Source: a virus. Taken from it: DNA of 64,000 nt. The notes beneath the pieces are model-generated. The model had not been told where the DNA came from and did no database searches. It saw nothing but the letters and a program-made list of their open reading frames with translations. Shown here one piece after another: positions 5,346 to 26,946 of the stretch (the stretch's first letter is position 1; each line of letters begins with the position of its first letter). The stretch lies in IMG/VR virus record IMGVR_UViG_3300045988_167582. The stretch is one strand, 5' to 3'. The translations under genes and the position numbers were made by a program.

Positions 5346-5367
5346 GCGATTTCGGTAACGAACCGTG

Positions 5368-5394
5368 CCCGCCGCAGAAATGCGGCGGGTTTTC
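5368..5394 (+). terminator. intrinsic terminator
   Basis: cccgccgca-gaaa-tgcggcggg followed by tttt. Confidence 0.7.
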
Positions 5395-5440
5395 AAATCA
5401 ATATCAACCGAAAATTAAATGAATTAAAGGAGAATTGAAC

Positions 5441-5668: not shown

Positions 5669-5686
5669 TCAGTAGACACCCCGGAA

Positions 5687-5712
5687 CCCCGTCATGAAAA
5701 TGACGGGGTTTT
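5687..5712 (+). terminator. intrinsic terminator
   Basis: ccccgtca-tgaaaa-tgacgggg followed by tttt. Confidence 0.7.
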
Positions 5713-5716
5713 ATCT

Positions 5717-5802
5717 GGGGGATTGGCGGAACAGGCAGACGCAATGGACTTAAAATTCATCGCTTTGAAAGCGTACCGGTTCAAATCCGGTATCCCCCAC
5801 CA
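5717..5802 (+). tRNA. tRNA-Leu (anticodon TAA), class II, CCA encoded
   Basis: Acceptor gggggat/atccccc, anticodon arm atgga-cttaaaa-ttcat, long variable hairpin cgctttgaaagcg, T arm ccgg-ttcaaat-ccgg. Confidence 0.9.
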
Positions 5803-5830
5803 AATGAATTTATAAACAAGGAGAGGTTTT

Positions 5831-7306: not shown

Positions 7307-8240
7307 GAATATCAAAATCACAGATGAGAGTCTTAATGAAGTACGCAAGGCTTTTGAGGAAGCATTGTCCACGGGAAAGTTCTCCGACGGGAAAATCACT
7401 TTCACAAAAACTCTCGGCATCGTCAATCGAAAGGCTACCATTTTCTTCACTGAGCTTGCTTGGCTCAAGATGCAGACTCTTATACGAGAGTTCGATAAAG
7501 AGGTTGCTTGGCACGGTATCGCCAAGCGCGGAGAAGACGCTTCTAAGGATGAGTATTACATAACGGATATTCTGGTGTATCCGCAGGAAGTGACAGGAGC
7601 AACGGTGAGCACCGACCAAGAAAAATACCAGATGTGGCTTATGAGCCACGATGATGAGGTTTTCAATAACATTCGGATGCAGGGACATTCTCATGTAAAT
7701 ATGGATGTCACTCCGAGTAGTGTGGACACATCGCTCTATGACCGGATTCTTGAGCAACTTGACGACGATATGTTCTACATCTTCATGATTTGGAATAAGC
7801 GCAAAGAAAAGACCATCAAGATTTACGACCTTGCTAAGAATATTTTTTTCGATACTTCGGATGTCACAGTTGAAGTCCTTGAAGATGGAACCGGTATCGA
7901 AAAATTTCTCAATGACGCGAAGGACGCGGTAAAGGACAAGCCTACCACACCGACATCGACATATCAAAGCCCCTATCGTAGTTCTTATGGGTATGGCGGA
8001 TATTATGGCGGATACGGCAGTTCCTACGGAGGCTCTGCAGAAGAGAAAGAGCCAAAAAAGACCGAGTCGCCCAAAGAAACAGCGAGTTCTCAGAAAAAAC
8101 GAAAGGGAAAGCGCAAAGGGAAACGCAAAGGTAAACACGGCGGGGTCAACAATACCTGTGATGAGAGTAAGCAAGTGACTCTTTGGGATGGGTATGATTA
8201 TGACGATATGGATGACCCGTTCTATGCAAGAGGTTATTAA
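7299..8240 (+). CDS. JAB/JAMM (MPN+) metalloprotease-domain protein with a low-complexity tail
   Basis: GHSHVNMDVTPSSVD fits HxHx7Sx2D exactly, with an upstream E (EVAWHG). The C-terminal tail contains SSYGYGGYYGGYGSSYGGS and KKRKGKRKGKRKGK. Confidence 0.8.
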   Translation: MSKNIKITDESLNEVRKAFEEALSTGKFSDGKITFTKTLGIVNRKATIFFTELAWLKMQTLIREFDKEVAWHGIAKRGEDASKDEYYITDILVYPQEVTGATVSTDQEKYQMWLMSHDDEVFNNIRMQGHSHVNMDVTPSSVDTSLYDRILEQLDDDMFYIFMIWNKRKEKTIKIYDLAKNIFFDTSDVTVEVLEDGTGIEKFLNDAKDAVKDKPTTPTSTYQSPYRSSYGYGGYYGGYGSSYGGSAEEKEPKKTESPKETASSQKKRKGKRKGKRKGKHGGVNNTCDESKQVTLWDGYDYDDMDDPFYARGY

Positions 8241-8256
8241 CAGGAGGTGATTTTCA

Positions 8257-8817
8257 ATGACAAGGCAGGAGTTTCTTGACGATGTTTACGATTTCAGAGA
8301 GCTGATGGATTTTTGTTATGATAATGACTGTGGGATTTGCGACGACATCTACGATGATGAGTCGAAGGATGAATATATCAATGAACATCTTTCGGATATG
8401 GCAGATAACGCAGATGACTGGCAAAGTCTCTATCGTACTTTGGATTATATCCCGACCGGGTATGATTACTATCGTTTAGATGATTACGACGATTTCAACG
8501 GTTTGGACGATGACGACTTCGATGACTACAAAAACGATGTGCTCGAGTGGATGGATGATAATGAATACTGGGACGAGGACGAAGATGACGAGGAAGAGTA
8601 TTTCCCTCCGGAAGAAGAGTATAGCGAAGAGGAAGACGACGAAGAGTCATGTGAAGAAGATATGCAGCCTGTCGATGAGCTTTTCAGCTTATGCAGTGAG
8701 CAGCTCAGAGTAATCGATGCAAAAGAAAAAGCCGAAGAGCAGAGGTGCAATGAAGAATTTCTTGCTTTTACAGCGGAAATCGGCGTGGTAGTAAACGAGG
8801 GAGGCAAAGCAGTATGA
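8257..8817 (+). CDS. extremely acidic hypothetical protein
   Basis: caggagg RBS; long D/E runs (DDYDDFNGLDDDDFDDY, WDEDEDDEEEYFPPEEEYSEEEDDEE). Confidence 0.7.
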   Translation: MTRQEFLDDVYDFRELMDFCYDNDCGICDDIYDDESKDEYINEHLSDMADNADDWQSLYRTLDYIPTGYDYYRLDDYDDFNGLDDDDFDDYKNDVLEWMDDNEYWDEDEDDEEEYFPPEEEYSEEEDDEESCEEDMQPVDELFSLCSEQLRVIDAKEKAEEQRCNEEFLAFTAEIGVVVNEGGKAV

Positions 8818-9488
8818 TGGATTTAAGCAAATCTTATGATTTTTTTCAGCCTGAAAAGGACGACGCCCGTATCCATATTGTTGGGTGCGGCTCTGTTGGT
8901 TCCACCATTGCGGAAAACTTGGCTCGCTGTGGTGTAACAAAGATGACCCTGTGGGATTTTGATAAGGTTGAAGCCCACAATATTGTCAATCAGATGTTCC
9001 GACAGCAGGATGTCGGTAAGTTAAAGGTCGAAGCTCTTAAAGATATTCTGAGCGACATCAACCCCGACATCATCGATGATGTCGAACTCAAACCTGACGG
9101 CTGGAAAGGAAGGCTTATGTCCGGCTACATCTTCCTCTGTGTGGACAGTATTGAGCTACGCAGAGAAATTGTCGAGAAGCATATGGATAGTCCATATGTA
9201 AAAGCGGTATTTGATTTTCGTACACTTCTTGAAAGTGCGCAGCACTACGCCGCTGACTGGTCGGATTATAAAATGAAAAAGGACTTATTGAAGTCCATGC
9301 AGTTCTCGCACGAAGAAGCCGCCGTGGAAACTCCAGTATCGGCTTGCGGGGTCACGCTCGGAGTTGCGACGACAGTGCGTGCGGTTTGCGCTATTGGTGT
9401 TGCGAACTTTATCAGGTTCTCCAAGGGTCAGGGCATTAAGAAGTTTATGAACATTGACCTGAGTACATTCATGCTTGACGCTTTTTAA
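8814..9488 (+). CDS. E1-like ThiF/MoeB-fold (Rossmann) protein
   Basis: IHIVGCGSVGSTIAENLARCGV ... LWDFDKVEAHNIVNQMF resembles the GxGxxG plus DxDxV..N..RQ nucleotide-binding core of ThiF/E1 adenylyltransferases. Confidence 0.7.
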   Translation: MMDLSKSYDFFQPEKDDARIHIVGCGSVGSTIAENLARCGVTKMTLWDFDKVEAHNIVNQMFRQQDVGKLKVEALKDILSDINPDIIDDVELKPDGWKGRLMSGYIFLCVDSIELRREIVEKHMDSPYVKAVFDFRTLLESAQHYAADWSDYKMKKDLLKSMQFSHEEAAVETPVSACGVTLGVATTVRAVCAIGVANFIRFSKGQGIKKFMNIDLSTFMLDAF

Positions 9489-9504: not shown

Positions 9505-9758
9505 GACTGTAATGAAATGTGTTTCTTTGAAACAGCTTTTCGCTGTCAGCAAAAGTAACAACTTGAGAGGAAAATGGTAGCCCCAAGGAGGTGTCTTCTT
9601 CGAAGGTGGGGACTGTACACTCCGGAAATCACGAGGACATTAACCATCAGATGTAAGAATATTCCATTGTCCCGCAATAAGTCATCAAATAAGAAAGCCA
9701 TCAGTGCCGGTTCCCAGACTCGAATCGACGCCCGCTTCTATCTATAATGATTACAGTC
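9505..9758 (+). ncRNA. retron-like structured RNA element, copy A (directly upstream of the RT)
   Basis: Ends pair (gactgtaat 9505-9513 with attacagtc 9750-9758); G at 9514; conserved hairpin cttttcGCTGTCAGCaaaag at 9536-9555; G at 9749 precedes the 3' strand. Confidence 0.6.
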
Positions 9759-9779: not shown

Positions 9780-10922
9780 GTGGTTTATATCACAGTAAAG
9801 CAACCACCAATGTATAGACAAATGACATTGGAAGAGCTTCTTTTTGGAACGGAAATTAAACCTTCCATAGTAAACAACAACATAACAAACACGCATACAT
9901 ATGTTGTTGACAGAGTAAACGATAAATATCGCAAGCGAATCGATGTCGATAAGATGATTGAAAAGCTTGCACAATTCAATCAGCAAACAGAATCGCTCAG
10001 AGTGCATCAGCCACGCACAGATTTATATTATACATTCCATATTCCTAAGAAAAGCGGCGGGCTTCGGCGTATCGATGCTCCGAACGATGAGCTGAAGAAC
10101 GCACTTAGAAATTTGAAAGAGATATTCGAGAATGATTTCGGATGCCTGTATCACACAAGTGCGTTTGCATATATAAAAGGACGCGGAACAATTCCTTCGG
10201 TTAAACGACATCAGGCAAATGAGTCCAAGTGGTTTGGAAAATATGACCTTTCTAACTTCTTTGGAAGTACAACGCCTGACTTCATTATGAAGATGTTTTC
10301 AATGATTTTCCCTTTCTCGGAAATCGTTAAGACGAGTGATGGTAAGGCAGAACTCAGTAAAGCACTCGACCTTGCCTTTTTGAACGGAGGTCTTCCGCAG
10401 GGAACGCCGCTTTCGCCGACGCTGACAAACATTATGATGATTCCGATTGACCATAAGTTATCCAATGGACTGCGTAACTTCAATAATCAGTCCTTTGTTT
10501 ACACAAGGTACGCGGATGATTTTCTTGTATCCTCAAAATACGAGTTTAAGTTTATGGATGTAGAAAAATTCATCGTTGATGTGTTGGCAGAGTTTGGTGC
10601 CCCGTTCACAATCAAGACAGCCAAAACCAGATACGGCTCGTCTGCCGGTTCCAATTGGAACCTCGGAGTTATGCTGAATAAGGATAACAACATCACAATC
10701 GGTCATAAAAAGAAAAGACAGTTTCAAGCAATGCTCAGTTCATATGTCCTTGATAAACAGAACGGGCATCCGTGGGATAGAACCGATATCCAGACCTTAG
10801 AGGGTTATCGGAATTATTATCGCATGGTAGAGGGAGAGACTATCGATAAAATTGTCGAGCACATTGGAGAGAAGTATCATATTGATATAGTTGCTTCCCT
10901 TCATGACGATTTACGAACATAA
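9780..10922 (+). CDS. reverse transcriptase, retron/group-II-like RVT_1 type, stand-alone
   Basis: YYTFHIPKKSGGLRRIDAPNDELK, KYDLSNFFGS, GLPQGTPLSPTLTN, YTRYADDFLVSS. GTG at 9780 lies 7 nt after aggagg; alternative starts are ATG 9747 (inside the RNA stem) and ATG 9810. Confidence 0.9.
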   Translation: MVYITVKQPPMYRQMTLEELLFGTEIKPSIVNNNITNTHTYVVDRVNDKYRKRIDVDKMIEKLAQFNQQTESLRVHQPRTDLYYTFHIPKKSGGLRRIDAPNDELKNALRNLKEIFENDFGCLYHTSAFAYIKGRGTIPSVKRHQANESKWFGKYDLSNFFGSTTPDFIMKMFSMIFPFSEIVKTSDGKAELSKALDLAFLNGGLPQGTPLSPTLTNIMMIPIDHKLSNGLRNFNNQSFVYTRYADDFLVSSKYEFKFMDVEKFIVDVLAEFGAPFTIKTAKTRYGSSAGSNWNLGVMLNKDNNITIGHKKKRQFQAMLSSYVLDKQNGHPWDRTDIQTLEGYRNYYRMVEGETIDKIVEHIGEKYHIDIVASLHDDLRT

Positions 10923-10928
10923 CAAAGA

Positions 10929-11194
10929 TTTCTGTAATGAATATCCATTTTTATGGGGCTTTTTGCTGTAAGCGGAAGTGACGCGATGGTAAGGGAAAAG
11001 ACGCAGGGAACTGGCACGCAAATCAATCCCTCCTCGCAGAGATGACCAGCGAACAAATCAATACACAAGAAATGAGCTGTTGCTACACAACAGTCCAATC
11101 CGTCAGCAAGCAACAAATACACCTGCACCTCGCTTCCGAGGCGCCTGAGCCGCACCGGTATCCCGCCTGCTGCTGACATTGTAGATTACAGAAA
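10929..11194 (+). ncRNA. retron-like structured RNA element, copy B
   Basis: tttctgtaat 10929-10938 pairs with attacagaaa 11185-11194; G at 10939; hairpin ctttttGCTGTAAGCggaag at 10959-10978; G at 11184. Confidence 0.6.
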
Positions 11195-11204
11195 CAACTA
11201 AAAT

Positions 11205-11472
11205 GGATAAGCTGATAATGCAATTGCTTTGCCTATGCAAACGCGCTCTTTGCTGTCAGTGAGAGTAACAACTTGAGAAGAAAATAGAGGATGAAGAAGA
11301 CGACAGAATAAAATTAAAGAATATATCAAGTAATCCAAATAACTTGGTGTAGACCCTGAAGACATTGTCCCACAACAACACACTGAACTATCCTCTGGAT
11401 TTCCTCATCTGGAACACCGGTACCTGCATCCCAGTTTTGTGCAGCTGTTCCCTTGTAGATTATCACTTATCC
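11205..11472 (+). ncRNA. retron-like structured RNA element, copy C
   Basis: ggataag(c)tgataat 11205-11219 pairs with attatcacttatcc 11459-11472; G at 11220; hairpin ctctttGCTGTCAGTgagag at 11246-11265. About 40 nt after the hairpin is near-identical to copy A. Confidence 0.6.
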
Positions 11473-11914
11473 AACAAAAGAATTGTTCCTTTTAAGGAGC
11501 TCCCGAAAATCTATTGTAACACAATAGGTTTTCGAGAATTCTACAACCGCCGAGGTTGTAAAACGCTATATTGCTCTGATGCCAGAGCTTTATAAACCCT
11601 CCCGAAAGCGCACCGGCAAACTATGAATTGGCAATCGACTCATAGGTAAGAAACGACAGGTAATGAGCCGACCTATCTGGATTGCGTCCAGACAACGCAA
11701 GTTGGTCGAAATTCGGGAGATATATTTTTAATGCTTTAAGACGAGGTGAAAAATATTCGCACGGATATACTTGAAAGAAAGACGGAAATCCTCAAATCCT
11801 CAATTGGATAAATGAGAAAAAGACCAAAGCTTTTATAAGTCGTCAATTATTGTGTCCAAATTGTCACGCGGTACAAAATCTCATGATGATTCGAGGCGAA
11901 TTTATAATAAGAAT

Positions 11915-11987
11915 GTGGGCTAAACGAGAACATAGTTAATAATGTGCCCATTAGGGCGTGTAAGTTCAAGTCTCATTGCCCACACCA
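11915..11987 (+). other. degenerate tRNA-like sequence (possible tRNA pseudogene)
   Basis: 73 nt ending in acca; acceptor gtgggc/gcccac and a TTCAAGT T-loop are present, but I cannot fold a proper D arm or 7-nt anticodon loop. Confidence 0.3.
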
Positions 11988-11990
11988 CTT

Positions 11991-12070: not shown

Positions 12071-12147
12071 GTGGGTATAGCTCAACTGGTAGAGCACCTC
12101 TCTTTTAATGAGGGAGTCCGGCGTTCGAGGTCGCCGTACCCACACCA
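12071..12147 (+). tRNA. tRNA-Lys (anticodon TTT), CCA encoded
   Basis: Acceptor gtgggta/tacccac, D arm gctc-aactggta-gagc, anticodon loop cttttaa. T stem cggcg/cgccg has an 8-nt loop by my fold. Confidence 0.75.
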
Positions 12148-15496: not shown

Positions 15497-16030
15497 ATGA
15501 AAACTCTCATTGTGATTGATGTGCAAAATGATTTTATCACAGGAGCACTTGGCTCGAAAGAGGCTGTAAATATTTTGCCGAACATCAAGAAGAAAATCGA
15601 AGCGTATATTGACGCCGGTGATGAAGTAATTTTCACTCGTGATACGCATGGCGAAGCTTACCTTGACACCAATGAAGGAAAACATCTTCCGATTCCTCAC
15701 TGCATCAAAGGAACAGATGGCTGGCAGATTGTCAAGGAAATCGACCGTCCTGAATGTGAGCATATTGATAAGTTCACATTCGGATATCCCGATTGGGATA
15801 TCTCTGCTTCTGATGATGGAAGCTTTTCAGACCGTAATTTTAGTGAAATTGAAATAATCGGTGTCTGCACCGATATTTGCGTGATTTCTAATGCCCTGAT
15901 TCTCAAGGCGCTTTTTCCGGAAATTGATATTACCGTTGATGCGAGTTGCTGTGCAGGAGTCACTCCCGAGACTCACAAGGCGGCGCTCACCGCTATGAAA
16001 TCATGTCAAATCAATATTGTTGGAGAGTGA
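15497..16030 (+). CDS. pncA: isochorismatase-fold cysteine hydrolase, nicotinamidase (PncA)-like
   Basis: LIVIDVQNDF at the N-terminus and IIGVCTDICV (catalytic Cys context) are typical of nicotinamidases. Confidence 0.8.
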   Translation: MKTLIVIDVQNDFITGALGSKEAVNILPNIKKKIEAYIDAGDEVIFTRDTHGEAYLDTNEGKHLPIPHCIKGTDGWQIVKEIDRPECEHIDKFTFGYPDWDISASDDGSFSDRNFSEIEIIGVCTDICVISNALILKALFPEIDITVDASCCAGVTPETHKAALTAMKSCQINIVGE

Positions 16031-16034
16031 TTAA

Positions 16035-16838
16035 GTGTTAAAAGTTAATTGCAAACCGGTTGAATTAAACAAATTTCCGGACGGTACTTTTTTGATTAAG
16101 GAGAAACCGTCCGGCGATAGGGCTCTTATCTCGTGGAAGTTTGAAAATAATGAGGAGCTTGTTGCACTGATTTATATTACTCATCATCTGCGTGCCCACG
16201 GCGTTAAGACAATTCATTTGTTTATGCCGTATATCCCCAATGCACGGCAGGACAGGGTAAAAACAGATGAGGATGTATTTACACTCAAATATTTTGCTTG
16301 GGTTGTTAATTCTTTGGAGTTTGATAAGGTCATGGTGGTAGACCCCCATTCATCTGTATCTGAGGCTTTGATTGAGCGTATAAAGATTATATCTCCCGCC
16401 GATTTAATCAACATCGCTTACAATCGTGTCTGTGAGGAATGCTCGTGTGGAGATAATGATGTCTTGATGTTCTATCCTGACGAAGGCGCGATGAAACGAT
16501 ATTCCGGAATGATTTCGGCGCCCTATGCTTTCGGCATTAAAGAGCGCGACTGGGCTACTGGAAAGATTAAAGGATTATCTGTTTTTGAGGGTGAGAGCTC
16601 CGTCAAAGGCAAGAACATCCTGATTGTTGATGACATCAGTAGTCGAGGCGGAACCTTCTACCACAGCGCCAAAAAACTTAAAGAACTCGGCGCTGAGAAG
16701 GTATTTCTTTATGTAACGCACTGTGAAAACACAATCCTCGAAGGCGAGGTTTTATCCAGTGGGCTGATTGAGAAGGTTTATACCACGGACAGCCTGCTTA
16801 CGATAAAACACGAAAAGATTGAGGTGATGGAGCTGTGA
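16035..16838 (+). CDS. ribose-phosphate pyrophosphokinase (Prs)-family protein; possibly an Adps-type enzyme
   Basis: GTG start; NILIVDDISSRGGTFYHSAKKLKELGA is the PRPP-synthetase/PRTase ribose-phosphate loop. Confidence 0.8.
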   Translation: MLKVNCKPVELNKFPDGTFLIKEKPSGDRALISWKFENNEELVALIYITHHLRAHGVKTIHLFMPYIPNARQDRVKTDEDVFTLKYFAWVVNSLEFDKVMVVDPHSSVSEALIERIKIISPADLINIAYNRVCEECSCGDNDVLMFYPDEGAMKRYSGMISAPYAFGIKERDWATGKIKGLSVFEGESSVKGKNILIVDDISSRGGTFYHSAKKLKELGAEKVFLYVTHCENTILEGEVLSSGLIEKVYTTDSLLTIKHEKIEVMEL

Positions 16839-18310
16839 TTAAAATGAATCCAATGCTTTTGATTGACTTTTATAAAGCCGTTCACGCCGAAATGCTACCG
16901 AAGCACATGACAAAATCGGTATCCTATTATACCCCTCGTATGAGTCGAGTGAATCGCTGGGATAAGGTCGTCATGTTCGGTTTGCAGGGATTTATTAAGA
17001 CATATCTCATCGATTACTTCAATGAGGAGTTCTTTGCGAAACCTTTTAAGACGGTGATGGCTGATTATCAGCGAGTAATGGACGCGTCTCTTGGAAAGGG
17101 CATTTATGGTATGAAAAAAATCGAAAATCTCCATAAGCTTGGCTATCTTCCGATTGAGATTGTCGCCATTCCAGAGGGCACCCGTGTTCCGATGCATTGC
17201 CCAATGTTTGGAATCACAAATACACTCCCTGATTTTGCTTGGCTTCCCCAGTCTCTCGAAAGCCTCATCTCCGCTGAGAGCTGGCATCCTATGCTGGCTG
17301 CTACCGTAGGATACACCTACAGAGAAATCGTAAATCATTATTACGGTTTAACTTGTGATGACAACATTCCTCGAGCAAAGGCGCTTGGCGCGTTTGATTT
17401 TCGAGGCGAAGAAAGCTTGGAGTCTGCCATTAAAGCCGGAGCAGGGTGGTGTATGTCATTCCTGAATACAGCAACAGTCCCTGTTATTCCGTATTTGGAG
17501 AGTGTATATAATTGTGACTGCACTAAGGAGCTTGTGGCTTTTGGCAGCCCGAGTACAGAGCACTCTGTTATGTGCTCGAACTATGCGGTTGATGGTGATG
17601 AAATCACACTACTCAGACGGCTACTCACGGAGATTTATCCCAATACCAGTTTCTCCGCCGTGCTTGACTCATATGATTACTGGAATGTAATTGACAATAT
17701 TCTTCCGCAAATCAAGGATGAGATTCTTGCGCACAATGGATGTATGTTAATGCGCGGTGATTCCGGTGACTGCGTAGAGGTTGTGACAAAGACGGTTTTC
17801 AAGCTCTGGGGAGAATTCGGCGGTACAATTAACAGTAAGGGGTACAAGGTACTTGACCCCCATGTAAAGGCTATCTACGGAGACAGCATTACCGTTCAGC
17901 GCTGTGAGGAGATTTACAAGATTTTGATGGGGCACGGATTTGCCTGCTCCAATGTCGCTCTTGGCGTCGGTTCTTTCTCTTTTCAGTGTATTGAAGAAGA
18001 CGGAATATTAAAGCCATTTACGAGAGACACATTTAGTTCCTGTATTAAGGCAACCTACTGCGAAATTGACGGGAAGCCTCTCCCAATTTTCAAAAACCCC
18101 AAAGACGGTGGATTCAAAAAGAGTCAAAAGGGGTGCTGTGTGGTTTACAAAGACAACGATAACGGACTCTGTTATAAGGACGAGTTTACTTGGGACGAAG
18201 CATATAGTGATTCACGAAATATGCTTGTACCCGTGTTTAAGGACGGCGTAATGACAAAGGAGTTTACTCTTGAAGAGGTCAGAGCCAATCTGCATGGAGG
18301 TAATTTCTAA
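16835..18310 (+). CDS. nicotinamide phosphoribosyltransferase (NAMPT/NadV)-family protein; possibly Namat-type
   Basis: N-terminal LLIDFYKAVH and the overall length and pattern fit the NAMPT family; 4-nt overlap with the Prs-like gene. Confidence 0.8.
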   Translation: MIKMNPMLLIDFYKAVHAEMLPKHMTKSVSYYTPRMSRVNRWDKVVMFGLQGFIKTYLIDYFNEEFFAKPFKTVMADYQRVMDASLGKGIYGMKKIENLHKLGYLPIEIVAIPEGTRVPMHCPMFGITNTLPDFAWLPQSLESLISAESWHPMLAATVGYTYREIVNHYYGLTCDDNIPRAKALGAFDFRGEESLESAIKAGAGWCMSFLNTATVPVIPYLESVYNCDCTKELVAFGSPSTEHSVMCSNYAVDGDEITLLRRLLTEIYPNTSFSAVLDSYDYWNVIDNILPQIKDEILAHNGCMLMRGDSGDCVEVVTKTVFKLWGEFGGTINSKGYKVLDPHVKAIYGDSITVQRCEEIYKILMGHGFACSNVALGVGSFSFQCIEEDGILKPFTRDTFSSCIKATYCEIDGKPLPIFKNPKDGGFKKSQKGCCVVYKDNDNGLCYKDEFTWDEAYSDSRNMLVPVFKDGVMTKEFTLEEVRANLHGGNF

Positions 18311-19119
18311 TGGATTACGAAGAATATATGAGAAAATTTAACGCAAAAGCGGTAAAAGACGGAGTTGTCTCATGGATTCGCCAGTGGTTTAAAACAAACG
18401 GCAATGGGTGTAATGCCGTTGTCGGTATTTCCGGCGGGAAAGACAGCTCAGTCGTTGCTGCACTGTGCGTTGAAGCGCTTGGAAAAGAAAGAGTAGTTGG
18501 TGTGTTAATGCCGAATCACGAACAGGCAGATATCGGTTCAGCGTACAAGTTGGTTGACCACCTTGGCATTATGTATACCGTTGTCAATATCGGCGGTGCT
18601 GTTGACTATTTATCCAGTCACGTTGATTCAAGCATTTTAAGAACAGCGAAATTATTTAGTTCGCAGGTTAGCTTAAAAATGTCCGTCCAATCAAAAACAA
18701 ATCTGCCTTGCCGAATCCGCATGGCTACGCTTTACGCGGTTTCACAGAGTGTCAACGGCAGGGTTGCCAACACTTGCAATCTCAGCGAGGATTGGGTCGG
18801 GTACTCAACGCGATACGGAGATTCCGTTGGTGATTTCAGTCCTCTGTCAATGTTAACAACGGATGAGGTGATTGCAATCGGCAAGGAATGTGGCATTCCG
18901 AACGAGCTTATCGAAAAAGTACCATCGGATGGGCTTTGCGGTAAAACCGATGAAGAAAATCTTGGCTTCTCCTATAGAGTTCTTAACGAATATATCAGAA
19001 CAGGGCATTGTGACGACGAACGAATCCGAGTGCTAATCGACGAAAAGCACAGCAAAAGCTTATTTAAGCTCTTGCCGATGCCGGTTTTCTTATATGAACC
19101 CATAAGAATCACGTGTTGA
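18310..19119 (+). CDS. nadE: NH3-dependent NAD+ synthetase
   Basis: PP-loop GISGGKDSSVVAAL; NadE-sized (269 aa). Confidence 0.9.
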   Translation: MDYEEYMRKFNAKAVKDGVVSWIRQWFKTNGNGCNAVVGISGGKDSSVVAALCVEALGKERVVGVLMPNHEQADIGSAYKLVDHLGIMYTVVNIGGAVDYLSSHVDSSILRTAKLFSSQVSLKMSVQSKTNLPCRIRMATLYAVSQSVNGRVANTCNLSEDWVGYSTRYGDSVGDFSPLSMLTTDEVIAIGKECGIPNELIEKVPSDGLCGKTDEENLGFSYRVLNEYIRTGHCDDERIRVLIDEKHSKSLFKLLPMPVFLYEPIRITC

Positions 19120-19131
19120 GATTTTAATAAA

Positions 19132-19290
19132 ACCCACAATGTAGATTGATTGCAAATTGAGTATTTATACATATGTGCAGTCGCTCGTCGCTGTTAGTGC
19201 GAGTATGAAATTGAAAACGGTTCTCCGGAAAAGCACAACCCATAAGGCGTTCTGCGTCCGTGCACGCCTTCTGAGTTACGGATTGTGGGT
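19132..19290 (+). ncRNA. retron-like structured RNA element, copy D (shortest)
   Basis: acccacaat 19132-19140 pairs with attgtgggt 19282-19290; G at 19141; gtagattgattgc box; hairpin ctcgtcGCTGTTAGTgcgag at 19184-19203; G at 19281. Confidence 0.55.
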
Positions 19291-19301
19291 AATATTTATA
19301 T

Positions 19302-19416
19302 GCCGATGTAGTTTTAAGCTGCGATAAAGAGCTGAGCCTTTTCAGTGACTGCGTATGAGGGTAAAACTTGCTCAGGATGTGTGAGTAGAATGCAGGTTCA
19401 AGTCCTGCCGTCGGCA
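19302..19416 (+). other. 115-nt tRNA-like element without encoded CCA
   Basis: 7-bp acceptor gccgatg/cgtcggc and a perfect T arm gcagg-ttcaagt-cctgc. The middle holds a 6-bp stem ctgagc/gctcag enclosing 32 nt instead of a normal anticodon arm. Confidence 0.4.
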
Positions 19417-19421
19417 ACTAT

Positions 19422-19497
19422 GCTGGTGTAGCTCAGTTGGTAGAGCAGCTGATTTGTAATCAGCCGGTCGGGGGTTCGAGTCCGTCCACCAGCTCCA
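19422..19497 (+). tRNA. tRNA-Thr (anticodon TGT), CCA encoded
   Basis: Acceptor gctggtg/caccagc, D arm gctc-agttggta-gagc, anticodon arm gctga-tttgtaa-tcagc; one G-G mismatch in the T stem. Confidence 0.8.
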
Positions 19498-19715
19498 AAA
19501 TAGGAGAGCTATACTCCGAGGCACCCTTGGGGTCTGGAGCAACAAGGAAAAATAACGTCCCCAGAATGGTTTGCGGTAGTCAGAAGAAAACCGCCGAAAA
19601 CCGAAAGGTTTGGAGAGCAAAAGTGTTGGATAGGTCGGCACCCCACATGGCATTAGAGGCGTGGATAAGGACAAGGCGTGGAAATCTGCGGAAGCGCGAA
19701 AAACCACAGTTATTT

Positions 19716-19808
19716 GGAGAGTTAGCCTAATTGGTTAAGGCACCGGTCTTGAAAACCGGCGTTCCGTAGCAATGCGGATTCAGGGTTCGAGTCCCTGACT
19801 CTCCGCCA
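19716..19808 (+). tRNA. tRNA-Ser (anticodon TGA), class II, CCA encoded
   Basis: Acceptor ggagagt/actctcc, anticodon arm ccggt-cttgaaa-accgg, long variable arm, T arm caggg-ttcgagt-ccctg. Confidence 0.9.
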
Positions 19809-19834
19809 AAATAATAAATAGCGAGGTGATTTTA

Positions 19835-20011
19835 ATGGTTTTTGTTCCGTATGAAAAGCTCTCAAAGAAAAAGCAGAAAGAAATTGACGCGCAGAAGCGA
19901 GGAATATGGGGCGAAATTTGCCCGATTACGAGGAAAACCAAAAACCTCACAGTATATAATCGCCAAAACGAAAAGAAAAACGCGAGGAGGGATATAAATG
20001 ACTCTTACTGA
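19835..20011 (+). CDS. small basic hypothetical protein (58 aa)
   Basis: gaggtga RBS before the ATG at 19835; K/R-rich. Confidence 0.5.
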   Translation: MVFVPYEKLSKKKQKEIDAQKRGIWGEICPITRKTKNLTVYNRQNEKKNARRDINDSY

Positions 20012-21278
20012 AAAAGTGATTGCACTTCAGGAGTTAAATGGAGCGAATGAAAAACAGAGATTTCTGAAAGAGAATGCGGATGACGCCCGGTTCACAAAGT
20101 TTCTGTATTATGCGCTAAATCCACTTCTTACATACAATCTTTCGGAGAATACGCTTCGGGATAAGCCGGATAATTCTCCGTGCAAAGGGTTTATTACCTT
20201 TACAGATATCTTTGATTGCTGTGAGCAGTTGTCCCGCTTACGAGGACTTGATGATGCGACGGTTCGTCAGGTAAAAAACTTTTTGTACAATCAAATTGAT
20301 AAGGACGCGACCCGTGAGATTTTTATTAAGCTTCTGGCGAAAACTTTGAGACTTGGAGTAACCGCAAAGACTGTTAACAAAGTGATTCCCAACTTACTTC
20401 CGGAGTGGGAAGTTCAGCAGGCGTATCCGATAGATAAGTATCCGGTCTCAAGCGGTACAGAGTTTTGGTTGACCCAAAAACTGAACGGTGTGCGTGCAAC
20501 ATTATATAATGGTCAACTTATCGCACGAAGCGGCGTTCCGTTCAAGGGTCTTGACCACATACTCAAGGAACTTCGATGGGCTGATTGCGCTCATATTGCT
20601 TTGGACGGTGAGCTTACGCTTGTAGATACGCATGGGTTAAGAGACAATGAGGCTTTCCGTGAGGCAACCGGTATTCTGAACTCGGATGATGAGCATAAAA
20701 CAGGGATTTGCTTCACAATTTTTGACGCAATTCCTTATGCAGATTTTGATAGCGCCAACCCAAAGGTTTCTTATTCTCATCGGAGAACCATTCTTAACGA
20801 GGTAGAGGAGACGGTGAGTAACTCGGAATGTGTAAGAGTGCTACCGGTGCTTTACCACGGCAAAGACCTGCGGAAAATTGATGAACTTCTTGAGCAGATG
20901 ATTCGAGAGGATAAAGAGGGCTTAATGCTCAATACCGATGTGCCGTATAAGAGAACAAGACACAAAGGCATTCTGAAAATCAAGCGGTTTTACACAATGG
21001 ATTTACCGATTACCGGAGTTGAGGAAGGAAGCGGCAGACTCACCGGTAGGTTAGGGGCTTTTGTGCTTGACTACAAAGGAAATGAAGTAAAAGTCGGTTC
21101 CGGGTTTACGGATGAACAGCGCAGAGGTTATTGGGATATGCGTAACAGCCTTATAGGTCAACTGTGTGAAGTAAAGTACAAGGAAATCTCCTATGACAAA
21201 AACACAGGGCTTGAAAGTCTCCAATTCCCCGTATTTGTACAGTTGCGAGCCGATAAGACGGAGGTAAGCTATGGCTGA
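19998..21278 (+). CDS. ATP-dependent DNA (or nucleic-acid) ligase
   Basis: Motif I TQKLNGVR (KxxG), EGLMLN, and ILKIKRF (motif V-like). Confidence 0.85.
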   Translation: MTLTEKVIALQELNGANEKQRFLKENADDARFTKFLYYALNPLLTYNLSENTLRDKPDNSPCKGFITFTDIFDCCEQLSRLRGLDDATVRQVKNFLYNQIDKDATREIFIKLLAKTLRLGVTAKTVNKVIPNLLPEWEVQQAYPIDKYPVSSGTEFWLTQKLNGVRATLYNGQLIARSGVPFKGLDHILKELRWADCAHIALDGELTLVDTHGLRDNEAFREATGILNSDDEHKTGICFTIFDAIPYADFDSANPKVSYSHRRTILNEVEETVSNSECVRVLPVLYHGKDLRKIDELLEQMIREDKEGLMLNTDVPYKRTRHKGILKIKRFYTMDLPITGVEEGSGRLTGRLGAFVLDYKGNEVKVGSGFTDEQRRGYWDMRNSLIGQLCEVKYKEISYDKNTGLESLQFPVFVQLRADKTEVSYG

Positions 21279-21609
21279 TTTTGATAGAGAACAAGCGGAG
21301 CAAGAGCTGTATGAAAGAATGCTCGCAGAGCTCAGCACCTTTCGAGATTCGCTGTTGAGGCTTTCTCCCTCAGAGATAATCAGTAACTATAACCCATACG
21401 AACTCGTTTATAAAGAAGATATACTGATGTGCTTTGAGGATGACGAGTTATGCTTAAGCGATGAAAATGTTCTGGTTTTGCTTGAAAAGGAGAACCCGCT
21501 TGACTGGCTTTACCAGTCTTGGTGTGACTCCGGCATTTCTCACATGGATATGATGCGTGAATTCATTCACGATACAGTACAGGCACAGGAGGTGTCCAAT
21601 AATGATTAA
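21271..21609 (+). CDS. hypothetical acidic protein (112 aa)
   Basis: Start overlaps the ligase stop; no motif recognised. Confidence 0.6.
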   Translation: MADFDREQAEQELYERMLAELSTFRDSLLRLSPSEIISNYNPYELVYKEDILMCFEDDELCLSDENVLVLLEKENPLDWLYQSWCDSGISHMDMMREFIHDTVQAQEVSNND

Positions 21610-22105
21610 AATCGTAGACGGCGATATTTTTAACTGTGATGCAGATGCAATTCTACACCAAGTAAATTGTCAGGGTGTTATGGGGAGCGGAGTTGCTAAG
21701 CAAGTGCGAGAAAAGTTCCCTACGGTATTCAAGTATTATAAAGCTCGTTGTGATGAGGATAAGCGTTTCAAGGAGCAGTCCGGTATCACGAAATCGAGCC
21801 TGCTCGGTTTAGCACAGGTGTGTTATAAAGATGATTACCCCGTTGGTGATATTAAGGATAAACAGGTTATTATCAATCTGTTTGCACAGGACAGATATGG
21901 TTACGACGGTAACTGCTACACTGACTATGAGGCTCTTCGTAAATGCCTAAAGACGGTCAACAAGCAGTTTTCTGGCAAAAGAGTAGCCATTCCGTATCTT
22001 ATGGCTTGCCACAGAGGCGGTGGAGACTGGGATACGGTTTATCAGATGATAGTTGAGGAATTAGCTGATTGCGATGTAACCTTATATCGATATACCGCCG
22101 GGTAA
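21602..22105 (+). CDS. macro-domain protein (ADP-ribose binding/hydrolase family)
   Basis: IVDGDIFNCDADAILHQVNCQGVMGSGVAKQVREKFP is a typical macro-domain N-terminus; ggaggtg RBS. Confidence 0.85.
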   Translation: MIKIVDGDIFNCDADAILHQVNCQGVMGSGVAKQVREKFPTVFKYYKARCDEDKRFKEQSGITKSSLLGLAQVCYKDDYPVGDIKDKQVIINLFAQDRYGYDGNCYTDYEALRKCLKTVNKQFSGKRVAIPYLMACHRGGGDWDTVYQMIVEELADCDVTLYRYTAG

Positions 22106-22115
22106 GGAGGAGCCA

Positions 22116-22514
22116 ATGTGTAAAAATAAACAAGCGCCTCCGCAATTTTCTGCAAACATAAGCGGGTTTTGTGCTATGGCTGAGAATGCTAAGAGGGATT
22201 ACGAATGGAATCGAGAAGAGGTAAATCGCCTTGATAGACTGACGCAAGACTACTTGCATATGCTCGAACTTGACGGACTTGATTATAAAGAACGCGCCAA
22301 GGTCGCCACAAAACTGTCTCAGTGCAGACAACTTCGCAGGAACTCAAAAGACACAGTTGAAATTTTAGAACCATTCATTATGTTTTTGGATAGCGACAAA
22401 GGAAAGAACATGATGAACCTTGTTCGAGAGGCTCTCGGAAAGACCCGGAAAGTAGAGGAGCGAATGATGGGAAGAACCTACAGATTCAAGGTTTATGAGG
22501 GGAGATGTGAGTAA
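22116..22514 (+). CDS. hypothetical protein (132 aa)
   Basis: aaggagg RBS. Confidence 0.6.
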   Translation: MCKNKQAPPQFSANISGFCAMAENAKRDYEWNREEVNRLDRLTQDYLHMLELDGLDYKERAKVATKLSQCRQLRRNSKDTVEILEPFIMFLDSDKGKNMMNLVREALGKTRKVEERMMGRTYRFKVYEGRCE

Positions 22515-22804
22515 TGGATGAGGTTAATAACTTTTTAAAACGATTTCATCTGTCGAGCAATGTTGACGAGGTGTTCACCTGCGGTTGTTGCTATTGGTTC
22601 GCGGCAATCCTGTTTCGCAGATTTATCAGAAACGGTGCGGAAATCGTGTATTCAGTAGAAGATAATCACTTCGGCACAAAGATTAGAGGAAAGGTTTATG
22701 ACATAACCGGAGATGTTACGACTAAGTACAACTGGATTTCGTGGCTCAATTATAGTGATTCAGCTCATAAAGAAAGAATTGTTCGTGATTGCATTATGTT
22801 TTAG
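22514..22804 (+). CDS. hypothetical protein (96 aa)
   Basis: ATG overlaps the upstream stop (taATGg). Confidence 0.6.
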   Translation: MDEVNNFLKRFHLSSNVDEVFTCGCCYWFAAILFRRFIRNGAEIVYSVEDNHFGTKIRGKVYDITGDVTTKYNWISWLNYSDSAHKERIVRDCIMF

Positions 22805-22961
22805 GAGGTGAAATGTCAATGCGTGAAAGAAGTTGTGTGTCCAGTCCCGACATACTTCAGAATTGTTCATCAACTTATCAAGTACGATGATGCGATAGCG
22901 ACAAGATAAGTTCTTCACACTTTTTTCAAAATATTTTTATTGTTTCTGGGATTAAATATTA

Positions 22962-23255
22962 ACTTGTAATGTAGATTGCTATCTTGCATAGCGCTTCTCG
23001 CTGTAAGCAGAAGTATCGCATTGGTGGGAAATAGAACAGGGGATGACGACCCTGTAAGCCTCACTCAGGCGAGCTAATCGCCGTCAGTGAAGCTCAAAGA
23101 CAGACAACCAATCAAAAGAACATCCAAACGCATTGTGTAGCAACGCGAATCACCCAGCAAAACAGTCAACTAACCATATGAAACAGAGGTTCAGTTGGGC
23201 AGGTATCTATAGTGCAGCGATTCATGATGCGGCAATGTAATATAAGATTACAAGT
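22962..23255 (+). ncRNA. retron-like structured RNA element, copy E
   Basis: acttgtaat 22962-22970 pairs with attacaagt 23247-23255; G at 22971; gtagattgc box; hairpin cttctcGCTGTAAGCagaag at 22994-23013; G at 23246. Confidence 0.55.
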
Positions 23256-23449
23256 GAACGCGAAACGTTAGGGTGTGACAACAAAGCACCCAATGAAAGG
23301 TTGGGATTTTTAATGTGGTTATCTACCGCACCTAAAGAAGAAATTAAAAAGGTGGTTTATAACCGTAAATAACTTGAGTAATATACTGAATCACGGCTGC
23401 GGATGTGATGAGGTGTGTTATATTAAATAAACTTGAAGGAGTAAGATAA

Positions 23450-24406
23450 TTGACTATTTTTCTAAAAATCGTTTCTCTTTTACTTTTTGCGAGCGCATTC
23501 GCCGTCCCGGCAATTGTAAACTATGTACGACGTGAAAACTCTTATGATGACAACTATAAAAGAGTTCCCAAGAGATGGACTGTTGTTACTACATTAGTGG
23601 CAGCGGTTCTTTTTATTGTCTCTTGTGCTTTTGTCATCATTCCGACTGGGTACACAGGCGTTCGTACAACATTCGGGCAGATTGATAGCGTCACTATGCA
23701 GAACGGGTTTAATTGGAAAGTTCCGTTCGCACAGACTGTGCGAACGGTGAACAACAAGCAGCAGGATTTGCTTTTTGAAAAAGATAAGATTTGGTCTGAA
23801 ACGGAAAGCCGAACAGCAATTTATTATGAGGGCGTAACGGTTACATATCAGATTAGCGCCGAAAAATCCGCGTGGATTTATGCGAATGTTGCAAACTACA
23901 AAGAGGTGCTGGTTTCATCCAATCTGGTTGCATCTGCAATCAAGTCGAGCAGCAAGAGCCTGAGCGATACCGATGCGACAAATCGAGCCGTGGTTGAGCC
24001 TCTTACTATGCAGAACCTTCAGAAATCTCTTGATGAAAAATATGGGGAAAATGTTGTGTTCGTAAATAAAGTGACAATCAGCAACATTGATTTTGAAGAT
24101 TCTTACAATGCGGCAATCGCTGCAAAGCAGCAGGCGCAGCTCAATGCAGAGCAGCAGGCAATTGAAAATCAGCGTGCAATCGATAAAGCAGAAGCTGACG
24201 CGGAGGTAAAGTGCAGGACTGCGCAGGCAGAAGCCGATGCTAAACTCATTACAGCGCAGGCTGAGGCAGAAGCGAACACTCTTCTGGAAAAATCGCTGAC
24301 AAGTCAGATTTTACAGGAAAAGTATATTGAAAAATGGAATGGACAGATGCCCAATGTGATTGCCGGAGATGACGGTACATCCATTCTGGTTCAGCCCACT
24401 CCGTAA
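23450..24406 (+). CDS. SPFH/Band-7 (prohibitin-like) membrane protein
   Basis: TTG start after gaaggag; N-terminal TM segments, TGYTGVRTTFGQI ... NWKVPF SPFH core, and an A/E/Q-rich coiled-coil tail. Confidence 0.85.
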   Translation: MTIFLKIVSLLLFASAFAVPAIVNYVRRENSYDDNYKRVPKRWTVVTTLVAAVLFIVSCAFVIIPTGYTGVRTTFGQIDSVTMQNGFNWKVPFAQTVRTVNNKQQDLLFEKDKIWSETESRTAIYYEGVTVTYQISAEKSAWIYANVANYKEVLVSSNLVASAIKSSSKSLSDTDATNRAVVEPLTMQNLQKSLDEKYGENVVFVNKVTISNIDFEDSYNAAIAAKQQAQLNAEQQAIENQRAIDKAEADAEVKCRTAQAEADAKLITAQAEAEANTLLEKSLTSQILQEKYIEKWNGQMPNVIAGDDGTSILVQPTP

Positions 24407-24446
24407 GGTCAATAAAATAACGGCGCAGAACCGCAGACCTGCACCG

Positions 24447-24689
24447 TAATCACAATGTAGATTGATTGCTTTCAGGTTTAATACATATACAGGCAATCAC
24501 TCCTGCTGTCAGCAAGAGTATCAAGATGAGTCTTGCACTTCGGCTGGCGGACACACAATTTGCGAGCAAGCTCTAAGGAGCTTGCTCGTGTTCTTTGAAT
24601 CCCACGGATTCAAAGAACTGCCAGCCGAAGTGGCACTTATAGGTACAACAAATAAGTTCAAGGAACCTATTTGTTACAGATTGTGATTG
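24447..24689 (+). ncRNA. retron-like structured RNA element, copy F
   Basis: (t)aatcacaat 24447-24456 pairs with attgtgatt(g) 24680-24689; G at 24457; gtagattgattgc box; hairpin ctcctGCTGTCAGCaagag at 24500-24518; G at 24679. The interior has 11-13 bp helices. Confidence 0.55.
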
Positions 24690-24720
24690 AAAGATTTAAC
24701 TATGAAAGGCGGAATAAACG

Positions 24721-26946
24721 ATGAGAGTTCTCTTGTTATTAAGAGGCAGCGCTGGGTGCGGGAAATCCACATGGATTGAGCAAAACGGTCTCAAACCGTA
24801 TACCTTATCGGCAGATGACATTAGAATGATGTGTTCAAGTCCGGTCTTGAATGTTGACGGGAAAGAGGAAATCAATCAAAACAATGACACTGCTGTATGG
24901 AGTACACTCTTTAAGCTGCTCGAGCTGCGTATGCAGAATGGTGAATTTACGGTAATTGATGCTACCAATTCCAAAACGTCAGAAATGAACCGTTATAAAG
25001 AGCTTTGCTCTTCTTATAAGTACAGAATTTATTGCGTTGATTTCACTGACATTCCTATTGAAGTCACAAAGGAAAGAAATTTGCAGAGGGTCGAGATGAA
25101 ACAGGTGCCCGAGTCTGCAATTGACAAAATGTATGCTCGCTTTCAGACTCAAAAAATTCCGTCCGGTATTACAGTAATTAAGCCCGATGAACTCGAAAAA
25201 GTTTGGATGCGAAGAATCGACTTGTCCGAATACAATAAAGTCCACGTGATTGGAGATATTCACGGTTGTAACACTGCTCTCCAGACATATCTCGGTAGAG
25301 AAATTAAGGAAGATGAGTTTTACATCTTTACAGGGGACTATGTTGATAGAGGACTTGAAAATGCTGAGGTTGTGCAGTTCCTGCTCTCGATTTACGAGAA
25401 GAAAAATGTATGCCTTCTTGAAGGGAATCATGAAAGATGGCTGTGGATTTGGTCAAACGACGGAGTAAGCAAACCCAAGGAGTTTGAGTTTGTAACAAAG
25501 ACGCAGCTCGAAAATGCGCGGGTAAAGAAAAAGGATGTTCGTCGGTTATACCGTAGAATTGGGCAGTGCGCTTACTTTTCGTATGGAGAGAACGTTTATC
25601 TCGTAACTCATGCAGGCTTAAGCACTATTCCTGATAACCTGACCTTTGTTTCAACCGCGCAGATGGTTAAAGGAGTCGGAAGTTACAACGATTTTGAAGC
25701 CGTAGAAAAGGCTTTTGATAAAAACACTGCACAGAATTGCTATCAAATTCATGGGCACAGAAATACGAAACAGCTTCCAGTTAGAGCAAGCGAAAGATGT
25801 TTCAATCTCGAGGGACGAGTAGAGTTTGGCGGATGCCTTCGTTGTGTTGACTTACATCGGGACGGGACTATGGAAACTTCCGAAATTCAGAACACTGTAT
25901 TCAAGGCGCCTGATGAGATTCCGAAACCTGCAGCCGTATCTCATCAGACAGTTGGCGACGCTATTATCGCTCTCCGTCAGAACCGATATGTTCAGGAAAA
26001 GAAATACGGGAATATCTCTTCATTTAACTTCACCAAAACAGCGTTTTATGACAAGATTTGGGACGAGCAAACAACAAAAGCCCGTGGGTTATACATCAAT
26101 ATCCCCGAACAGCGCGTCGTTGCCCGTGCATACGACAAGTTTTTTAATATTAACGAACGCCCCGAAACGAAGCTCGATATGCTCCAGTACAAATTGAGTT
26201 TCCCCGCGACAGCCTATGTCAAAGAAAACGGATTTTTGGGTATCGTTTCCTATAACGATGAAGATGAATCGCTGTTCGTAACAACGAAATCTTCTCCGGA
26301 TGGGGATTTTGCCGGTTGGCTTAAAGATATGCTCTACGAGAAGTATTCCAAGGAAACACTTGAGGCGATTCGCTCTTTTTCCAGAGACAATAATGTCTCG
26401 TTTGTCTTTGAGTGCGTCGATATGAAAAACGACCCTCATATCATCGATTATGATGCAAGCAAACTGTTCTTGCTTGATATCGTATATAACGAAATGGCAT
26501 ATCGCAAGTTTAGCTTTGAGCAGCTTTGCGAATTTGCGGACAAGCATGGAATTACTCATAAGGAGAAAGCGTTCGTGCTTGAAACTTGGCAGGAATTCTT
26601 CGACTGGTACTACAAAGTTATCGATGAGGATTATAAGTACAACGGTCGAAATATCGAGGGCTTTGTTATCGAGGACTCCAACGGCTATATGGTCAAGCTG
26701 AAGCTTACCTATTATAACTTCTGGAAATTTATGCGCTCAATTTCTCACGAGGCAATTCGCAACGGGTACATTAGCGGTCGCCGCACATCGGCATTAACTA
26801 CACCGTTGGCGAATCAGTATTACAGTTGGGCTAAAACTCTCCATGATACAGAAGACCGAGATGCAGTTCCGAAGGATATTTGTACTTTAAGAAAAATGTT
26901 CTACCAGACGGATATTGGCAGACAATTTGCCGAGGAGGATACATAA
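24721..26946 (+). CDS. trifunctional Pnkp-type RNA repair enzyme (P-loop kinase, metallophosphatase, ligase/adenylyltransferase)
   Basis: LLLRGSAGCGKST (P-loop); VIGDIHGC ... TGDYVDRG ... LEGNHE (calcineurin-like); AYVKENGFLG (KxxG nucleotidyl-transfer motif I) in the C-terminal domain. Confidence 0.8.
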   Translation: MRVLLLLRGSAGCGKSTWIEQNGLKPYTLSADDIRMMCSSPVLNVDGKEEINQNNDTAVWSTLFKLLELRMQNGEFTVIDATNSKTSEMNRYKELCSSYKYRIYCVDFTDIPIEVTKERNLQRVEMKQVPESAIDKMYARFQTQKIPSGITVIKPDELEKVWMRRIDLSEYNKVHVIGDIHGCNTALQTYLGREIKEDEFYIFTGDYVDRGLENAEVVQFLLSIYEKKNVCLLEGNHERWLWIWSNDGVSKPKEFEFVTKTQLENARVKKKDVRRLYRRIGQCAYFSYGENVYLVTHAGLSTIPDNLTFVSTAQMVKGVGSYNDFEAVEKAFDKNTAQNCYQIHGHRNTKQLPVRASERCFNLEGRVEFGGCLRCVDLHRDGTMETSEIQNTVFKAPDEIPKPAAVSHQTVGDAIIALRQNRYVQEKKYGNISSFNFTKTAFYDKIWDEQTTKARGLYINIPEQRVVARAYDKFFNINERPETKLDMLQYKLSFPATAYVKENGFLGIVSYNDEDESLFVTTKSSPDGDFAGWLKDMLYEKYSKETLEAIRSFSRDNNVSFVFECVDMKNDPHIIDYDASKLFLLDIVYNEMAYRKFSFEQLCEFADKHGITHKEKAFVLETWQEFFDWYYKVIDEDYKYNGRNIEGFVIEDSNGYMVKLKLTYYNFWKFMRSISHEAIRNGYISGRRTSALTTPLANQYYSWAKTLHDTEDRDAVPKDICTLRKMFYQTDIGRQFAEEDT

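Follow-up and report, generated by a model that had tools for sequence, protein, structure and literature searches.

[quoted passage not shown] Also relevant to the locus described here are DRT2, a defence-associated RT with an ncRNA, rolling-circle cDNA and a neo gene, and the tRNA punctuation of polycistronic transcripts, in which RNase P and RNase Z cut at the tRNAs they contain. We know of no retron arrangement in which several ncRNAs are associated with one RT, and of no case in which tRNA-punctuated processing is linked to retron ncRNAs. The ncRNA of a retron is defined by paired ends, two opposing G residues, 5' hairpins and a template region (PMC7736814).

Within the window (the whole 64 kb stretch of viral DNA analysed here), a short intergenic sequence that we call element D is very probably a member of a genuine family of structured RNAs linked to an RT (Table 1). 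On balance we also favour reading it as one of six genes in the window for a retron-type (msr-msd-like) ncRNA, an assignment made by analogy: as in retrons, a1/a2-like ends pair, a G after a1 faces a G before a2, and 5' hairpins are followed by a putative template region. As in retrons, too, one copy (element A) lies right upstream of the RT on the same strand, whereas D itself is located 8.2 kb away.

Table 1. Positions in the window of element D and its parts, of the other elements, and of neighbouring genes.
Feature	Position	Strand	Evidence or remark
Element A (T1)	9505..9758	+	Directly upstream of the RT start; ends 22 nt before it
Retron-type RT, presumed trans-acting partner	9780..10922	+	Pfam RVT_1, PADLOC, NCBIfam, PDB
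Element B (T1)	10929..11194	+	Directly downstream of the RT stop
Element C (T1)	11213..11465	+	In tandem with B
nadE	18310-19119		Upstream neighbour of D
Element D, probable complete T2-class retron-like ncRNA gene	19132..19290	+	Sequence, covariance model matches, fold
Closing stem of D, 5' arm (a1-like), DNA ACCCACAAT / RNA ACCCACAAU	19132..19140	+	Pairs with 19282-19290
G right behind the 5' arm, candidate branching (priming) G	19141	+	G in 88/89 elements
UAGAUUG box, specific to subclass T2	19142..19148	+	Conserved in 11 T2 elements; not in A-C
Hairpin 1 (GAUUGCA/UGCAGUC)	19148..19182	+	RNAfold; RNAalifold on 11 T2 elements
Conserved AUACAUA motif, apical part of hairpin 1	19167-19173	+	
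Hairpin 2, CTCGTCGCTGTTAGTGCGAG: 5 bp, bulged C19189, 3 bp, GUU triloop	19184..19203	+	
Mini-hairpin CGG-UUCU-CCG, putative scar of a 73-nt deletion	19218..19227	+	Alignment with L001 orthologue
Payload hairpin AAGGCGU/ACGCCUU near the 3' end, candidate msd-like template hairpin	19244..19270	+	
G facing G19141, just ahead of the 3' arm	19281	+	G in 85/89 elements
Closing stem of D, 3' arm (a2-like), DNA ATTGTGGGT / RNA AUUGUGGGU	19282..19290	+	Pairs with 19132-19140
tRNA-like sequence, 12 nt downstream of D, candidate RNase P site	19302..19416	+	Rfam tRNA 31.8 bits; fold
Element E: UAGAUUG box, but short hairpin 1 and T1-like payload	22962..23255	+	
Element F (T2): long, very stable payload hairpin (z=-10)	24447..24689	+	Upstream of the Pnkp-Rnl fusion gene

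The likeness to retrons extends to the enzyme, which on sequence comparison belongs to the retron clade and is most similar to the RTs of types I-A (Ec83/Ec78) and II-A (St85). Its best PADLOC matches are RT_II-A (1.9e-47) and RT_I-A, and its top 12 PDB matches are all retron RTs (Ec83 at 1.2e-20, then Ec78, St85, Ec67, Kva2 and Ec86); the best NCBIfam match, retron_St85_RT, scores 177 bits, under its cutoff of 235, and there is a weak NCBIfam match to Drt2 (1.5e-10). The gene starts with the GTG at 9780, after AAGGAGG, and M1 is invariant in an alignment of homologues. The enzyme keeps YADD, and the positions of regions X and Y (NAXXH and VTG) are filled by the partial motifs SVKRH and NWNLG, of which the H and the G are invariant in a six-sequence RT alignment and are described as the best-conserved residues of these regions in retrons (PMC7736814). 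Relatives of this RT occur in more than 537 IMG/VR contigs and in 51 GTDB contigs, nearly all of the latter being gut MAGs, mostly labelled Clostridia, and 5237 database proteins match it at E<1e-20, many of them on contigs of ~115-120 kb. Some relatives (L002:10001-11368 and L051) have an insertion of ~75 aa behind the conserved IPKKSGG motif, in the N-terminal part of the enzyme.

Among 89 non-redundant elements in which the closing stem has 8 bp or more (median length 292 nt, maximum 458), D is the shortest at 159 nt, in agreement with a preliminary description that had called it the shortest copy at about 160 nt. The parts listed there for D were likewise all found at their positions, among them a payload with one clean hairpin, in which AAGGCGT (19244-19250) pairs with ACGCCTT (19264-19270) over 7 bp. 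Folding with RNAfold bore out the proposed pairing of the ends, as the 9-bp end stem of D is present in both the MFE and the centroid structure (z=-2.5), and both 5' hairpins form as well. Retron geometry (PMC7736814) would give G19141 the priming role; the opposing 3' G was no requirement of the element search, yet that position is a G in 85 of the 89 elements. The sequence GTAGATTGATTGC occupies 19141-19153 and has its sole other exact copy in the window at 24457. Hairpin 2, the apical part of which can be written as GCUGUUAGU, is the most conserved module of the family and probably the part that the RT recognises.

A pattern that draws on the invariant positions of the six candidate copies, AATG-N(22-52)-GCTGTNAGNNNNAGTRNNNNNNTG, has exactly six matches in the window, with 0 expected (100 shuffles); a seventh copy suspected near 27050 was rejected as coding sequence. 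Element D scores 85.7 bits (E=1.4e-13) with covariance model R1, the training set of which comprises six sequences with D among them, and 51.4 bits (E=4.5e-7) with model R2, trained solely on other phages. Across the window and the RT-bearing IMG/VR loci, R2 finds 208 matches in 74 of 82 sources, with 73 more in MAG loci, and the RT strand carries all 281. They are placed just upstream of the RT, just downstream of it (often two in tandem), or up to +10 kb, which is the downstream limit of the DNA covered by the scan, and almost none lie further upstream. In total, the family flanks or follows RT relatives in more than 100 phage and MAG contigs, and pattern scans of all IMG/VR, made independently of the RT, returned true elements solely in RT-bearing contigs, the remaining matches being chance occurrences in coding DNA.

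Two proposals of the preliminary description, that the family is RT-associated and that it is dispersed beyond a local duplication, therefore extend well past the window: the elements keep to RT-bearing contigs and to the RT strand, and their dispersal holds in many related phages, which rules out local duplication. Its placement of D 8 kb from the RT, between nadE and an aberrant tRNA-like sequence, was also correct, the distance being ~8.2 kb downstream, and the distal elements as a group lie 8-14 kb from the RT. No Rfam family overlaps any element, either at the gathering score or at E up to 5. The ncRNA is likewise a sequence family of its own: the best R2 match at a St85-type retron, in Klebsiella phage 4LV2017, is non-significant (E=1.2). 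A literature search of incomplete coverage for phage retrons with several ncRNAs found no such system, and a 21 kb megablast against isolate phages gave only tRNA-sized matches, and the window therefore has no close relative among deposited phages.

Covariation shows that the shared blocks of the family are parts of an RNA structure. In hairpin 2, 97.9% of cells are paired, compared with 33-53% in slid controls, and double changes occur in 7 of 8 pairs. The ends of 79 of the 98 elements pair over 8 or more contiguous bp, as against 13% in a null with mismatched partners, for which 5' arms were tested on the downstream DNA of other elements. An independent RNAalifold prediction from the cores of 11 T2 elements again gives hairpins 1 and 2, and compensatory changes support 13 of its 15 pairs, among them all 6 pairs of hairpin 1; in having two hairpins, both with compensatory changes, the elements resemble the retron msr. 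The arms of the closing stem take 62 distinct sequences across the family, and what is common to the copies is just the AAU/AUU adjoining the Gs. A MITE, or transposon with terminal inverted repeats, was considered and rejected, as the arms differ between copies and covary.

That the blocks might instead be DNA-level signals, such as a promoter, a terminator or a recombination site, we regard as extremely improbable. The 3' consensus TAGATT is loosely like a -10 hexamer and TTGACT-like strings occur in some payloads, but the candidate hexamers in the T2 box are spaced variably (12 to 17 nt), and promoter-like sites number 33 against 31.6 expected, none of them inside D. A scan for sigma-70 promoters and intrinsic terminators found no signature shared by the six elements. 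Pairing is moreover kept by compensatory changes, and G-U pairs, which are frequent in the stems and can form on the + strand alone, combine with the absolute strand bias (281 of 281 matches) to effectively exclude a DNA-level signal. The promoter or terminator signature that the preliminary description had itself raised as a possible explanation of the shared blocks thus finds no place in these data.

The elements fall into two structural subclasses. To T1 belong A-C and the majority of RT-flanking copies; here hairpin 1 is short and the payload, of 180-300 nt, is A/C-rich, U-poor and weakly structured. T2, which comprises D and F, with E sharing only the box, is laid out as a G, UAGAUUG, a longer hairpin 1 with AUACAUA, and then a hairpin-rich payload; when the 3' ends of the 14 listed T2 elements are inspected, most show a hairpin just before the 3' G. 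The earlier statement that D keeps every conserved part of the family stands for the closing stem, both Gs and the conserved hairpin, but the box GTAGATTGATTGC, which had been taken as family-wide, marks T2 (D, F and in part E), and because the RT-flanking elements A-C are without it, it is a subclass marker and not a family feature. The existence of two structural ncRNA subclasses, one of them linked to tRNAs, sets the system apart from retrons, as do the two to six ncRNA genes per RT, some of them 8-14 kb off, and the payloads, most of which lack the long msd hairpin: that of D has 7 bp, and the RT-flanking T1 elements are poorly structured.

Between these conserved cores the payloads change quickly. 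Comparison with a sister phage, L001, the genome of which is 93-96% identical to the window, finds elements A-C nearly identical over ~75 nt at the 5' end and ~35 nt at the 3' end and roughly 80-85% identical, with indels, in between. Among nine close phages, divergence amounts to 0.5-2.7% in cores and 9-23% in payloads, compared with 10% at RT third codon positions, and the payloads sort into two haplotype groups, a pattern suggestive of cassettes being exchanged between the conserved cores. Between more distant phages the payloads cannot be aligned at all, and a deep alignment of RT-upstream copies from 18 phages found no payload conservation, leaving a sequence-specific role for a cDNA unsupported.

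A phage RT, a non-coding template RNA and hypervariable sequence nearby are also features of diversity-generating retroelements (DGRs), but no TR/VR pair accompanies this RT, and its best matches are to retron RTs and not to DGR RTs. Payload complementarity within the window is confined to core-to-core matches, and payload differences among close phages, judged by eye from the alignment, are mostly transitions. With no second payload copy in the window and no adenine-specific changes, the DGR reading was rejected. The pairing of an RT with a structured ncRNA, the ends of which are brought together, is equally reminiscent of DRT2. However, the phage RT is far closer to retron RTs, and on either strand the majority of frames in most payloads contain stop codons, which bars an endless ORF, for which reason a DRT2/neo-like stop-free ORF was likewise rejected.

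The apical part of hairpin 2 behaves differently from the payloads, being of type GCUGUNAGC in the window and GCCAAAGGC, GCGUUUCGC or AUUGUAAAU in other genomes, with one type per genome common to all its copies, among which arms, lower stems and payloads differ. This uniformity points to one trans-acting reader in each genome. Multiple dispersed copies, variable in number and position among phages and strictly dependent on an RT-bearing genome, would also be expected of non-autonomous, SINE-like retro-mobile elements that the RT copies and reinserts between genes. We hold such mobility to be very unlikely, as arms and payloads are unrelated among the copies of one genome, so that no copy is recent, the positions of A-D are orthologous between the window and L001, and to our knowledge retron RTs have no integration activity.

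Comparison with L001 also alters the standing of D itself, which the preliminary description had held to define the core of the family on account of being minimal. In L001, the orthologue of D has an additional hairpin of 73 nt, flanked by a TTCTC repeat on either side, and both this orthologue and element F have long hairpins. Of the 73-nt hairpin the window keeps the 5' arm alone (AACGGTTCTC), refolded as the mini-hairpin of Table 1, with TTCTC at 19221-19225. Given this orphaned arm, D would most simply be a recent deletion derivative that arose via microhomology in the window's lineage, and its shortness is likely to reflect truncation.

Such a history leaves room for D to be a dead, decaying copy in a possibly functional family, and uninformative about a minimal core, which we consider doubtful though far from negligible. 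The deletion relative to L001 has orphaned a stem arm, a blastn alignment of the two phages covers this neighbourhood except for the payload of D and the sequence downstream, and the downstream tRNA is likewise aberrant. Against this, the core of D differs from that of L001 at about 5 of 90 positions, an identity on a par with the genome-wide 93-96% or above it, all of the closing stem but the outermost base of the 3' arm is intact, and the 3'-proximal hairpin of other T2 copies is still there. Other natural T2 elements, at 168-200 nt, are also nearly as short. We predict that D is still active, with chances that we judge to be even or somewhat better. It is a plausible candidate for a minimal substrate, but could equally be a decaying copy.

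The tRNA-like sequence downstream of D has a T arm and an acceptor stem of 8 bp, but in place of the D arm an insertion of ~59 nt, and ARAGORN calls no tRNA in it, even with introns allowed; a tRNA-Thr follows it, and at the same site L001 has a terminator-like hairpin instead. A tRNA starts 4-22 nt past the 3' arm in 5 of 11 T2 elements versus 2 of 81 T1 elements (Fisher p=1.8e-4), T2 elements being found before tRNA-Ile (L047), tRNA-Thr (L007), tRNA-Cys (L051), tRNA-Leu (L064) and tRNA-Met (L008), and an element begins 0-5 nt behind a tRNA in L064 and in L053. Judged by gene order, a position ahead of a tRNA is a recurrent feature of T2 and not incidental. The adjacency resembles tRNA-punctuated processing and suggests tRNA-directed 3' processing of T2 RNAs; on gene spacing alone, RNase P, and in some cases RNase Z, would trim elements from long transcripts.

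Several further features of the tRNA-bearing regions were observed. Directly behind a tRNA-Glu, positions 12071-12147 encode a tRNA with the anticodon UUA, which would read the UAA stop; the ORFs of the window look normal under code 11, and recoding is not evident. An ORF-free stretch at 11466-11990 (~525 nt, after element C), beside tRNAs, is partly missing from L001, and another at 19498-19715 (~216 nt, from tRNA-Thr to tRNA-Ser) is conserved there; neither has an Rfam match.

These observations could also accommodate structured RNA modules that are never reverse transcribed and that punctuate long phage transcripts for processing or stability, or form the leaders of tRNA or accessory-gene operons, whether their binding partner is the RT, a different phage protein or nothing at all. 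Every copy lies in intergenic DNA between gene modules and on the coding strand, T2 copies adjoin tRNAs, the payload sequence is unconstrained, T1 payloads have no msd hairpin, and no effector has been found. We nevertheless consider this unlikely: the end stem, the opposing Gs, the 5' hairpins and the copy before the RT are what a retron template needs and have no obvious use in punctuation, no element is seen without an RT, and homogenisation of the apical hairpin type within each genome points to one specific trans factor.

The gene context of the RT is itself conserved. Upstream of it, a block at 4953-9488 encodes proteins of 130, 491 and 316 aa and a ThiF/E1-like protein, and the order of 130-aa, 491-aa, 316-aa and ThiF-like genes, element, RT and more elements recurs in 68-75 of 81 loci. 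Sixty loci were found via the 491-aa protein, and the RT lies ~4.3 kb downstream in all 59 that have enough downstream DNA, which makes it a core gene of the lineage. In place of the bacterial defence islands in which retrons reside, the setting is thus a syntenic core gene set of large gut-phage contigs, many of them about 115-120 kb long. Sequence searches of Pfam, PHROG, NCBIfam and the PDB found no match to the 491-aa or the 316-aa protein, and for an AF2 model of the former (pLDDT 85) the best Foldseek PDB match reaches just E=0.2; the two may be partners of the RT, or simply syntenic with it. A further departure from retrons is that no effector gene was recognised in the phage system: no known retron effector domain adjoins the RT, and the adjacent gene is the ThiF/E1-like one. 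In L096, L097, L099 and L100 a strong intrinsic-terminator-like hairpin (ACCGCCAC...GTGGCGGTTTT) directly precedes the element before the RT, which suggests that element and RT open a new transcription unit; in the window there is no terminator-like hairpin ahead of element A.

Around the distal elements, the region 15497-26946 is likely a counter-defence/repair gene cluster, with a nicotinamidase-like isochorismatase, a PRPP-synthetase-like protein, NAPRT/NAMPT, NadE, an ATP-dependent DNA ligase, a macro-domain protein, a Band-7 protein and a Pnkp-Rnl1-type fusion; a CCA-adding enzyme is encoded further on, at 38476-39840. Elsewhere in the window, three 45-nt tandem repeats at 1-135 are followed by a full-length RAGATH-16 RNA (RF03047, 81 bits) at 153-225, and a 142-nt direct repeat (35909-36050 and 36611-36752; 77% identity, spaced 702 nt) probably represents two paralogous small genes.

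Taken together, the phage system departs from retrons yet would appear to work like one by most features legible at the sequence level. We propose that D is transcribed on the + strand within a nadE-tRNA transcript, and that an RNase P cut of the downstream tRNA-like sequence probably sets its 3' end. The ends of the RNA would then pair (19132-19140 with 19282-19290) and set G19141 opposite G19281, and the 5' hairpins, chiefly hairpin 2 (19184-19203), would serve as the handle by which the single phage RT recognises all six RNAs in trans. If retrons are a guide, the RT would use the 2'-OH of G19141 as its primer and copy the payload from the base before G19281 back toward the hairpins, yielding a short, branched, RNA-linked single-stranded DNA. 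Element D would take part as a truncated T2 copy, which has lost the inner 73-nt hairpin and kept the 3'-proximal one. That element RNAs are primers and templates for the RT is a proposal that draws wholly on the retron analogy, and one that we think probable.

A retron-type RT is thus part of a gene block that is conserved in a widespread phage lineage, with several cognate RNAs of hypervariable payload and no recognisable effector. The lineage of gut phages that carries RT and elements probably infects Clostridia. If the RT does copy the element RNAs, a virus would be using retron chemistry for its own ends, and the analogy suggests that one phage enzyme makes several different single-stranded DNAs. 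More tentatively, the core, syntenic retron-type RT of this gut-phage lineage may serve two to six template RNAs of two architectures, some of them released by tRNAs, to make a panel of branched single-stranded DNAs, the sequences of which evolve at or above the neutral rate. With tRNAs and genes for tRNA repair and NAD salvage nearby, these DNAs could be decoys or antitoxin mimics directed against retron-type or other abortive-infection systems of the host, or they might aid phage replication. If the RT does copy the element RNAs, a single retron RT would also naturally serve multiple templates in trans, which would be useful for multiplexed retron editing, and D and other short T2 copies would be natural guides to the smallest RNA that the enzyme accepts. 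The T2-tRNA arrangement, for its part, suggests a natural tRNA-based means of releasing retron RNAs from long transcripts.
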